DNA of 51,296 bases from Shigella phage SFP17, in the sequence record MN432485; one strand, 5' to 3'. This document shows, piece by piece, positions 5,694 to 51,296 of the stretch. Numbering within the stretch: position 1 is the stretch's first letter; every line of letters begins with the position of its first letter. The position numbers were made by a program, and so were the translations under genes. A model generated the notes under the pieces. That model saw nothing but the letters and a program-made list of their open reading frames with translations. It was not told where the DNA came from and ran no database searches.

Positions 5694-5739
5694 ATTATGC
5701 CCGACACAAGGCCGGGCGTTTTAACAAAAAGTGCTATTT
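5694..5739 (-). promoter_or_regulatory. conserved-motif promoter (motif + 22 nt dyad spacer + CATAAT)
   Basis: AAATAGCACTTTTTGTTAAAAC then GCCCGG...CCGGGC then CATAAT; upstream of 5482-5661. Confidence 0.5.
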
Positions 5740-5973
5740 TGACGCGGATTCGTAAAACTCTTGCAAGTCTTTACCGATCTGCTCATGCCATTTTTCAAGC
5801 GGTAGTTTTCTTGTTTCCTCAAAACTCATATCAAGCGCGCTTGTAAACTCCCACGGATCACAACCTAATAGCGGTTTTATGAAATCGTTTTTATCAAGCG
5901 CCTCGCAAACCATAGCGCGAAATAACAACCATTCGCCAGTTTCATTTAAATAAACGCTTCTTTCTTTCTGCAT
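5734..5973 (-). CDS. hypothetical protein (79 aa)
   Basis: ATG at 5973 with GGAG RBS; begins 4 nt after Dam stop; track ORF extended to 6060. Confidence 0.5.
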   Translation of the reverse strand: MQKERSVYLNETGEWLLFRAMVCEALDKNDFIKPLLGCDPWEFTSALDMSFEETRKLPLEKWHEQIGKDLQEFYESASK

Positions 5974-5977
5974 GATA

Positions 5978-6679
5978 TTAACTCCGCTTTCTTGCCCGAC
6001 GCTCTGCCACTGACGGGCAAATGTCGCTGATTTTAACGTATCGAGTTTTCTGCTGCTCACCTTCTTTCAGTTCGCGCATGATGAAAATAACGCTGCCTTT
6101 GTTGTTTCCCTGCACTGGTTTACCTGTTAGCGCGGAAGTAAACGCCAGGCGTCCGGTGCGGGAATATTCTGTTCCATCCTCCTGGTAAACTTCGCCAGTG
6201 ATCCAGATTATTTCCGCTGCGCGCTGCTGCGCTTCATAAAACCATCCTGTTGATGTGTCGCAAGGTAACAGAATGTCGATCTGGTTGTTGTGCTCCATTT
6301 GCTCAATCGCCTTCTTAACAAATGGCGTAATATTGCTATACGGTGGATTAAGCCATATATGCTTATTACTACCCCACCAACGCTTTAAGCAATTTGTTTC
6401 CTTGCTGTAGAATTTTTCACATACAGCATTTTCTTTGCTTGCCGCCGCGTCGATGTCATAATCACCGTATTCGCTCTCCATCCATTCGACAAGCTCAGAC
6501 GGCGTAGACCACAAATCGCGCACAACGTCCGGCGTATTGCTTCCGTTATAGCGGTTGCCAGTCACTTTGAAATATTGATTTGGTTTAACAGCCTGGTAAT
6601 GACCACCAGTAGCAAGAGCATTGCCAATGAATGTTTCGCGTTCTATTTGTTCAAATGTCACTTCGGTTTCTTTGCTCAT
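5978..6679 (-). CDS. dam: DNA N6-adenine methyltransferase (Dam-like)
   Basis: NPPY catalytic motif (WLNPPYSN) in translation; RBS AGGT; motif promoter immediately upstream. Confidence 0.85.
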   Translation of the reverse strand: MSKETEVTFEQIERETFIGNALATGGHYQAVKPNQYFKVTGNRYNGSNTPDVVRDLWSTPSELVEWMESEYGDYDIDAAASKENAVCEKFYSKETNCLKRWWGSNKHIWLNPPYSNITPFVKKAIEQMEHNNQIDILLPCDTSTGWFYEAQQRAAEIIWITGEVYQEDGTEYSRTGRLAFTSALTGKPVQGNNKGSVIFIMRELKEGEQQKTRYVKISDICPSVAERRARKRS

Positions 6680-6713
6680 TTCTTAATTACCTGTTGCTTG
6701 TTGAACTGGTGTT

Positions 6714-6759
6714 ATTATGGCGCAATCCTTCGCGCCTGTTTTAACAAAAAGTGCTATTT
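6714..6759 (-). promoter_or_regulatory. conserved-motif promoter upstream of dam
   Basis: AAATAGCACTTTTTGTTAAAAC + 22 nt (GGCGCgaaggattGCGCC) + CATAAT. Confidence 0.5.
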
Positions 6760-46397: not shown

Positions 46398-46443
46398 ATT
46401 ATGCCAGGATTTGCACCTGGCGTTTTAACAAAAAGTGCTATTT
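46398..46443 (-). promoter_or_regulatory. conserved-motif promoter
   Basis: AAATAGCACTTTTTGTTAAAAC + 22 nt (CCAGGtgcaaatCCTGG) + CATAAT; upstream of 46180-46365. Confidence 0.5.
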
Positions 46444-48930: not shown

Positions 48931-49201
48931 GTTTTACAGTTATACCGATACCGTTGATTTTGATGGGATACAATTGCCCCTCCCTAACAACTACAGATAC
49001 ATAACTCGTGACCGTTTCGGTTTTATCCAGGGGTGGCGGAACAAACCAACACACACTGAGTTCGGTATGTCTGGAGGAGAAGAGTTGCCGATCACTTTTG
49101 GTCATCAAAGCGGTGAAAATCTTCCGGTTGTTGCGCGTAAGTATCGCAGACACAAGATTACAAGGCAGCTTATCTCTTTAACTGGATCTGTTGTTGAATA
49201 G
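48920..49201 (+). CDS. hypothetical protein (93 aa)
   Basis: ATG at 48920 with GGAG upstream; track ORF starts earlier at non-ATG. Confidence 0.55.
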   Translation: MSSKFYSYTDTVDFDGIQLPLPNNYRYITRDRFGFIQGWRNKPTHTEFGMSGGEELPITFGHQSGENLPVVARKYRRHKITRQLISLTGSVVE

Positions 49202-49241
49202 CACTTTTTGTTAAAACCGATGCGTCTCTGATTGGTATATT
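49197..49241 (+). promoter_or_regulatory. conserved-motif promoter
   Basis: AATAGCACTTTTTGTTAAAAC + 22 nt + TATATT; upstream of 49273-49467. Confidence 0.5.
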
Positions 49242-50529: not shown

Positions 50530-51225
50530 ATGTATAAAGGTTTAATATTCTCTTTGTTTGATGGATCTGGCAAAGCCGTTAAAGATTGGGCGGAGGCTGG
50601 ATATCAATGCATTTGCTTTAATGCTGATGATGCTGATCATGGTGATTACCAGTCAGTGCGGATAATTCACGATAACATTTATTACGTTAACGCGTGGATT
50701 GATGCTGATTTTATATATAAAGCGTGCCTTGAAACATGGGGTAAGCCTGATTTCATTATGGCATTTCCGCCTTGCACACAATTAGCAAATAGTGGATCTC
50801 GTCATTGGGCTAAAAAGCGCATGGAAAATCCTAACTTCCAATATGAAGCCGCCGACACTTGCAAAATTGCGGCGCATATCGCTGATTATTTCGGTGTTCC
50901 GTACATGATAGAGAATCCTGTAGGCAAGCTGTCAACGTTATGGCGCAAGCCTGATTATACGTTCCATCCGTGCGATTATGCTGGCTATCTTCCGGAAGAT
51001 GATAAGCATCCCGACTTCCCTGATATTATTCCGGCGCGGGATCGGTACTTTAAGAAAACATGCCTTTGGACTGGAAACGGATTTGTTATTCCTCCGCGCG
51101 CAACAATCCTTCCTAAAGAGGATGACAAGGATAATCCTGGTTGGGCCAAAACTGGCGGAAAATCATCTCGCCGCCCTACTCCGCGAGGTTTTGCTCGCGC
51201 CGTCTTTGAAGCTAACGCAAAATAG
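50530..51225 (+). CDS. putative DNA methyltransferase (C5-cytosine-like motifs)
   Basis: Motif I-like LFDGSG, motif IV-like FPPCTQ, motif VI-like IENPVGKL; RBS GAGGTGA; short (231 aa) so assignment is tentative. Confidence 0.55.
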   Translation: MYKGLIFSLFDGSGKAVKDWAEAGYQCICFNADDADHGDYQSVRIIHDNIYYVNAWIDADFIYKACLETWGKPDFIMAFPPCTQLANSGSRHWAKKRMENPNFQYEAADTCKIAAHIADYFGVPYMIENPVGKLSTLWRKPDYTFHPCDYAGYLPEDDKHPDFPDIIPARDRYFKKTCLWTGNGFVIPPRATILPKEDDKDNPGWAKTGGKSSRRPTPRGFARAVFEANAK

Positions 51226-51265
51226 CACTTTTTGTTAAAAGCCAGGTGTAAAAGCCTGGCATAAT
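51220..51265 (+). promoter_or_regulatory. conserved-motif promoter driving the gene at window position 1
   Basis: AAATAGCACTTTTTGTTAAAAG + 22 nt (GCCAGGtgtaaaaGCCTGGC) + CATAAT, then RBS AAAGGAGA at window end. Confidence 0.5.
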
Positions 51266-51296
51266 CACTTCACCGAAACGAAAGGAGAAATAAACG

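Follow-up and report, generated by a model that had tools for sequence, protein, structure and literature searches.

A probable orphan pair of DNA methyltransferases in Shigella phage SFP17: a T1-type Dam and a minimal C5 enzyme with a unique in-frame deletion

The genome of Shigella phage SFP17 very probably encodes a pair of orphan DNA methyltransferases typical of the T1-like Hanrivervirus group, namely a GATC-specific Dam of the phage T1 type and a minimal C5 cytosine methyltransferase. The analysis established family and fold, gene context and the conserved state of the catalytic residues; the activity of both SFP17 alleles we infer. Both genes are already annotated publicly, and close relatives have provided characterized members of both families, namely T1 Dam, which methylates GATC, and the Dcm of phage K42, which makes 5mC and triggers retron Ec86, so that the pair carries little weight on its own. 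The one novelty lies in the gene of the short enzyme, where the SFP17 genome has a unique in-frame deletion of 15 nt. The initial annotation of this DNA overlooked that the family of the short enzyme is known to trigger retron Ec86, and it placed the oddity of the protein in motif IV, whereas it lies in the deletion beside motif IX.

The window, i.e. the whole stretch of DNA that was analyzed, is the complete 51,296-bp genome of SFP17 (Drexlerviridae, Hanrivervirus, T1-like). The nearest genomes are those of Hanrivervirus pSf-1, egaa, haarsle, damhaus, and KarlJaspers, with ~ 90–98% nucleotide identity. The two open reading frames claimed in the initial annotation (5978–6679 and 50530–51225) are present exactly as described there, and their products of 233 and 231 aa are exact matches of the SFP17 proteins QHB43384.1 ('DNA N-6-adenine-methyltransferase') and QHB43459.1 ('site-specific DNA methylase'), respectively. 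Phage T1 encodes Dam (ST20), and a short C5 methyltransferase is not among its annotated genes (NC_005833); the combination of Dam and C5 enzyme is thus not universal in Drexlerviridae. Several records named 'Campylobacter phage' (host Campylobacter jejuni; MG065643, MG065648, MG065649, MG065680, and others, about 20–39) are 94% identical to SFP17 across the dam region and also contain the Dcm-like gene; these records are probably mislabeled, or derive from contaminating coliphages.

Table 1 Features of the two methyltransferase genes and of the promoter-like cassettes (positions in the window).
Feature	Position	Strand	Evidence or remark
dam, phage T1-type DNA N6-adenine methyltransferase, 233 aa, ATG start	5978..6679	-	PF05869, TIGR01712, phrog_111, T1 Dam identity
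NPPY, catalytic motif IV of Dam, aa 111-114	6338..6349	-	Translation; kept in T1 Dam alignment
DIDAAAS, aa 75-81, N-terminal of NPPY	6437..6457	-	Reads DLDAAAS in T1 Dam
Promoter-like cassette directly upstream of dam: TAGCACTTTTTGTTAAAA, GC hairpin, ATAATA	6713..6756	-	1 of 16 copies
Short DNMT3-like C5 cytosine DNA methyltransferase ('Dcm-like'), 231 aa	50530..51225	+	
Motif I LFDGSG, aa 9-14, FxGxG type, AdoMet binding	50554..50571	+	G12, S13, G14 invariant; aligns with DNMT3B motif I
Motif IV FPPCTQ, aa 79-84	50764..50781	+	P81, C82 invariant; aligns with PC of DNMT3B and E. coli Dcm
Motif VI IENPVGKL, aa 127-134, Glu128	50908..50931	+	E128, N129, P130 invariant
YFKKTCLW strand with K175 and K176, at canonical motif VIII position	51046..51069	+	K175, T177 invariant
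Minimal variable target-recognition-like loop, ~27 aa, from motif VIII-like strand to GGK	51073..51153	+	Least conserved, lowest pLDDT
GGKSSRRPTPRGFARAVFEAN, motif IX-like C-terminus, holds unique 15-nt deletion site	51154..51216	+	Relatives: GGKSxRTKxIRSLTPRGFARAVF
Nearest upstream 18-nt element to Dcm-like gene	49199..49216	+	No copy between 49216 and gene
Next promoter-like cassette, overlaps Dcm-like stop codon; hairpin GCCAGG/CCTGGC, then CATAAT	51223..51267	+	
Copies of the TAGCACTTTTTGTTAAAA element	603, 5719, 6739, 9263, 18042, 28711, 32471, 40954, 43657, 44955, 45960, 46423, 47825, 48702, 49199, 51223		

The Dam protein scores 204 bits (E=1.7e-60) against Pfam PF05869 and 185.7 bits (E=4.5e-55) against the NCBIfam equivalog TIGR01712 'phage N-6-adenine-methyltransferase', both far above the cutoffs (28.1 and 97.05, respectively), and it also matches phrog_111. 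Its initial reading as a Dam-like N6-adenine enzyme with an NPPY motif is borne out by these scores. It shares 66% of residues over 218 aa with T1 Dam (M.EcoT1Dam; ST20, YP_003925.1), including NPPY and DxDAAAS; T1 Dam is slightly longer (237 vs 233 aa), and the N-terminal 15 residues stay outside the alignment. From its sequence, the DIDAAAS segment is likely the counterpart of the AdoMet-binding motif I. A PDB sequence search with Dam gave no solved relative, only chance matches to snake toxins.

In both T1 and SFP17, dam adjoins helicase and VRR-NUC replication genes, and on its other side the SFP17 gene is followed by a small downstream gene. For this neighbor, the program-made list of open reading frames gives a 108-aa frame with a GTG start (5734–6060, minus strand) and an 83-nt overlap with the 3′ end of dam; the true start is most likely the ATG at 5973, 5 nt past the dam stop codon, giving a 79-aa product beginning with MQKERSVY. 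For T1 Dam (YP_003925.1), GATC methylation has been demonstrated, deletion of the gene lowers burst size by about 40%, and T1 DNA is only partly methylated by host Dam alone (PMC10470545). By analogy, the target of SFP17 Dam is most likely the adenine of GATC in phage DNA during replication, and the enzyme would complete the methylation that host Dam achieves only in part.

The short protein aligns over aa 2–230 with phrog_757 'DNA methyltransferase' (E=4.2e-76), and a 90%-clustered database contains 3007 of its homologues (E<=1e-3); its motifs are no chance matches, and its initial reading as a short C5-like enzyme is right. At 50% identity, the Dcm-like family falls into 2141 clusters, mostly of 210–260 aa, so that the short length is a property of the family, and it occurs in 1494 phage records that include Drexlerviridae, Dhillonvirus, Vequintavirinae, RB49-like, Jersey-like, and 9NA-like phages. 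The SFP17 protein has no Pfam or NCBIfam match, PF00145 being absent even at E<=1; among 45 relatives, 9 pass PF00145 individually, and then only over profile positions 4–94 of 324 (the N-terminal third, with motifs I–IV). A very large family of minimal C5 methyltransferases is thus missed by Pfam and NCBIfam, which matters for annotation practice.

When the PDB was searched with the protein or with a profile of 45 sequences, the matches were marginal only (E 0.14–0.6; DNMT3B and HaeIII, motifs I–IV). As these are too weak alone, we used structure prediction, and the predicted structure of the protein has a C5-methyltransferase fold; a fold outside the methyltransferases was what the initial annotation had named as evidence against it. 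In the model, the protein is closest by fold to the DNMT3 catalytic domain. Its identity to the catalytic domain of mammalian DNMT3A and DNMT3B is only 14–19%, it is ~ 55 residues shorter, and it ends at motif IX, without motif X, regulatory domains or partner, so the likeness is one of fold and not of subfamily membership.

In the short protein, the FxGxG of motif I is present as FDGSG, the Pro-Cys of motif IV is retained with the Q of the canonical PCQ replaced by T-D or T-Q, and the glutamate of the ENV motif (motif VI) lies in I-E128-N-P-V. Cys82 is the predicted catalytic nucleophile. The QxRxR of motif VIII is not present in the protein, and a KKT strand is found there instead; by analogy with the K42 mutant described below, this strand may be equivalent to motif VIII, with K175 and K176 substituting functionally for QxRxR. 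For motif IX (canonical RxLTxRExARLQ), the family has IRSLTPRGFARAV, and SFP17 keeps RRPTPRGFARAV, with L changed to P and the five preceding residues deleted. Motif X, the GNxVP helix that closes the AdoMet pocket, is missing, as the chain ends 11 residues past TPRG with no GN(S/A)V after it. Taken as a whole, the protein would be an AdoMet-dependent C5 fold with FDGSG, Cys82 in PPCT, Glu128 in ENP, the KKT strand, a very short recognition loop and a motif IX-like C-terminus, and with no motif X.

These observations change how the features first described as degenerate should be read. The initial annotation took the Q of 'PCTQ' as an echo of the canonical PCQ, whereas the family does not conserve it: PCTD is the consensus, with 184 sequences vs 5 for PCTQ. 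It also counted the short length and the altered motif IV against activity, and both turn out to be family-wide. Short length, a minimal recognition region, PCT(D/Q) and a missing motif X are norms of the family and not signs of decay, a point of use for annotation. The variable loop itself exists in two versions within the family, (K)DNPGWAK(T/L)GGK in the Drexlerviridae type and GYSxQHxKLGGK in the others (alignment columns about 225–245); judged from sequence, these could mark two target specificities.

The relation to E. coli Dcm (M.EcoKDcm, CCWGG) is distant, with 5mC chemistry and site presumably in common. With its 472 aa, E. coli Dcm includes an extensive recognition domain and motif X, and its motifs have the canonical forms PCQ, ENV and QxRxR; the phage enzyme differs in all of these. 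When the family profile was compared with E. coli Dcm using hhalign, motif IV alone was aligned, with a probability of 1.2%. This alignment was unusable as a map of motifs VIII–X, and motif IX was instead assigned by direct comparison of patterns; here the two are recognizably similar, E. coli Dcm having RRLTPRECARLM where the phage family has the pattern given above. The label 'Dcm-like' denotes a presumed function, not close homology.

A much closer relative is the protein of KarlJaspers (Bas06; bas06_0055, QXV82308.1, 'Dcm-like C5 cytosine methyltransferase'), which is 90% identical to the SFP17 protein, falls in the same 90%-identity cluster and occupies the same operon position. Phage K42 is a KarlJaspers strain, 95.4% identical to Bas06 (bioRxiv 10.1101/2023.08.16.553469); the K42 study has also been published (Wang et al., Cell Rep 2024 43:114857) and is summarized in PMC12916289. 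All four escape mutants of K42 on retron Ec86 were hit in a 711-bp gene, of the same length class as the SFP17 gene, or in its ribosome-binding site, expression of this gene was toxic only in retron-carrying cells, and LC-MS showed raised 5mC on the retron Ec86 msDNA in the presence of the K42 enzyme, whereas the C82A/E128A/K175A/K176A mutant of the enzyme was inert (bioRxiv 10.1101/2023.08.16.553469). Such a gene was found in 34 of 35 Ec86-sensitive phages (bioRxiv 10.1101/2023.08.16.553469). The residues C82, E128, K175, and K176 are kept between KarlJaspers/K42 Dcm and the SFP17 protein, whose match to phrog_757 is full-length; the SFP17 protein differs in having PCTQ instead of PCTD in motif IV, and in its length of 231 vs 236 aa, with RTKMIRSL replaced by RRP beside motif IX. 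The doubt raised in the initial annotation about the activity of the short enzyme is therefore largely settled for the family, by the 5mC of K42 and the presence of all four mutated residues, and persists for the deletion allele.

In the mechanism that we favor, a minimal ~ 230-aa C5 cytosine methyltransferase would be made as the last product of the early operon, its K42 orthologue makes 5mC, probably at CCWGG if analogy holds for the site, and methylation of the msDNA would be sensed by retron Ec86/Eco1, so that infection is aborted. CCWGG specificity was assigned to the K42 enzyme indirectly, from the msDNA mutants and from its analogy to host Dcm (bioRxiv 10.1101/2023.08.16.553469). An alternative is that the short enzyme does not copy host Dcm, and instead acts on another site (e.g. 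the outer C of CCWGG, or a motif that is shorter or degenerate) or on another substrate such as hairpin or single-stranded DNA, and that it mainly serves a purpose other than protection from EcoRII-type restriction; we consider this rather unlikely. It draws on the recognition loop of only ~ 27 aa in two family versions, on the undetectable homology to E. coli Dcm beyond motif IV together with DNMT3A/B as the nearest folds, and on BASEL, where these genes show no correlation with restriction resistance (PMC8594841). It also draws on the host used in the K42 work: in dcm+ MG1655, the msDNA CCTGG had little 5mC and the retron was silent until the phage enzyme was expressed (bioRxiv 10.1101/2023.08.16.553469), which fits awkwardly with a specificity identical to that of host Dcm. 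On the other hand, mutation of CCTGG in the msDNA hairpin abolished defense, a change of either C being sufficient (bioRxiv 10.1101/2023.08.16.553469), and CCWGG is retained or enriched in the SFP17 genome while CCSGG and GGWCC are purged. The target site of the minimal DNMT3-like family may differ from that of host Dcm. As for the possibility that the 231-aa protein is not a methyltransferase at all, i.e. that it transfers another group (e.g. carboxymethyl) or has a generic Rossmann fold with unrelated chemistry, we regard it as extremely improbable.

The SFP17 allele departs from its family between GGK and TPRG: it reads GGKSSRRP-----TPRG, and every relative examined reads GGKSxRTKxIRSLTPRG, with the 10-residue segment SxRTKxIRSL that SFP17 lacks in this form. 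The distance between GGK and TPR is 10 in 165 of 166 relatives, which extend to <50% identity, and 5 only in SFP17; conservation within this segment is at least 90% for T215, K216, I, R, S, and L. At the DNA level, the change consists of a 15-nt in-frame gap and ~ 4 substitutions, with the junction at about 51169–51177, within ~ 100 nt that are otherwise identical to phiE31-2. The gap is seen against KarlJaspers and haarsle as well as phiE31-2, the extra 15 nt being carried by all nearest phage records listed; a 23-mer across the junction has 0 exact matches in IMG/VR, and the exact 231-aa protein was found only in SFP17. In the predicted model of an intact homologue, the segment contains a helix (212–218) that is missing from the SFP17 model, and the pLDDT of this block is 85 in the intact homologue vs 70 in SFP17. 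The shortening of a segment of fixed length and the loss of a predicted helix make the activity of the SFP17 allele less certain than that of its relatives. As the deletion keeps the reading frame and spares both the catalytic residues and the RxxTPRxxARA core of motif IX, the allele could be active, weakened, dead or retargeted.

It is possible, if somewhat doubtful, that the allele is inactive or strongly weakened because the change from RTKMIRSL to RRP destroys a conserved basic helix; only adenine would then be methylated in SFP17, with a possible escape from sensing of the retron Ec86 type. The near-invariant spacing and residues of the segment, the loss of the helix with its drop in local pLDDT, and the presence of the 15 nt in all nearest phages, with a junction not found in IMG/VR, all agree with such a loss, and retron Ec86 selects exactly for loss of dcm (bioRxiv 10.1101/2023.08.16.553469); the surviving core and catalytic residues leave room for activity. 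A bolder version, which we judge improbable, is that the allele is a naturally selected variant in which loss of the basic RTKxIRS helix in frame has abolished or retargeted cytosine methylation and allowed escape from Ec86/Eco1-type retron defense; if true, it would be a field example of an escape route so far known only from laboratory selections. Just as improbable, in our estimate, is that the deposited genome contains an artefact of sequencing or assembly at this site, the real phage having an ordinary 236-aa enzyme. The allele is indeed seen in one deposited sequence only, and the gap and substitutions are compactly clustered in a stretch otherwise identical to phiE31-2, but the change is exactly in frame and regenerates R-x-x-T-P-R, as random assembly errors rarely do, and the site has no homopolymer or repeat to account for the loss of 15 nt. 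The deletion allele is a possible natural probe of the role of the helix beside motif IX, and the 231-aa and 236-aa alleles together offer a cheap way into the target specificity of the family.

The initial annotation proposed that a phage which methylates its own DNA in two ways is more broadly protected against restriction; this is plausible, the benefit to the phage being an inference, and an anti-restriction role of phage methyltransferases is a widespread idea in the literature. In BASEL, most Drexlerviridae were very sensitive to restriction-modification, and their methyltransferase genes showed no simple relation to resistance (PMC8594841). The SFP17 genome strongly avoids palindromes: of the 64 hexamer palindromes, 18 do not occur and several others occur once or twice (e.g. 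GAATTC 1, GATATC 2, GGATCC 2), the median observed/expected ratio being 0.33 for palindromes vs 0.87 for non-palindromes. Among shorter sites, CCSGG (3 observed vs 53 expected), GGWCC (14 vs 67) and CTAG (23 vs 193) are scarce, and neither GATC (275 sites, 1.42x) nor CCWGG (115 sites, 1.71x) is avoided, which fits with methylation protecting both of the latter. Retention of CCWGG was considered as a pointer to the specificity of the short enzyme and rejected, because T1, without this enzyme, likewise does not avoid CCWGG (1.17x), and such statistics do not discriminate. The contrast in CCSGG (3 sites in SFP17, 65 in T1) is ambiguous and could come from restriction pressure of the CCNGG or CCSGG type. 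Resistance of pSf-1 DNA to several restriction enzymes has been reported, and might reflect missing sites rather than methylation.

The 18-nt element TAGCACTTTTTGTTAAAA occurs in 16 copies in the window, allowing up to 3 mismatches (0.13 expected), all of them intergenic and on the strand of the neighboring open reading frames. Most copies are followed, after ~ 19–20 nt that often hold a GC hairpin, by a -10-like (C/T)ATAAT and a ribosome-binding site. TTGTTA and the -10-like hexamer are ~ 23 nt apart, too far for a standard sigma-70 promoter; by its sequence, the arrangement looks like a phage-specific promoter or regulatory cassette. Between 49273 and 51225, the open reading frames follow one another closely on the plus strand, and the element nearest upstream of the Dcm-like gene is probably the start of a single early operon that ends with this gene. 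The cassette that overlaps its stop codon precedes a gene starting at window position 1. Some cassette hairpins (51241–51262, and 46400–46422 on the minus strand) are built from CCAGG/CCTGG pairs, e.g. GCCAGGtgtaaaaGCCTGGC right after the Dcm-like gene, placing Dcm-type sites inside putative regulatory hairpins.
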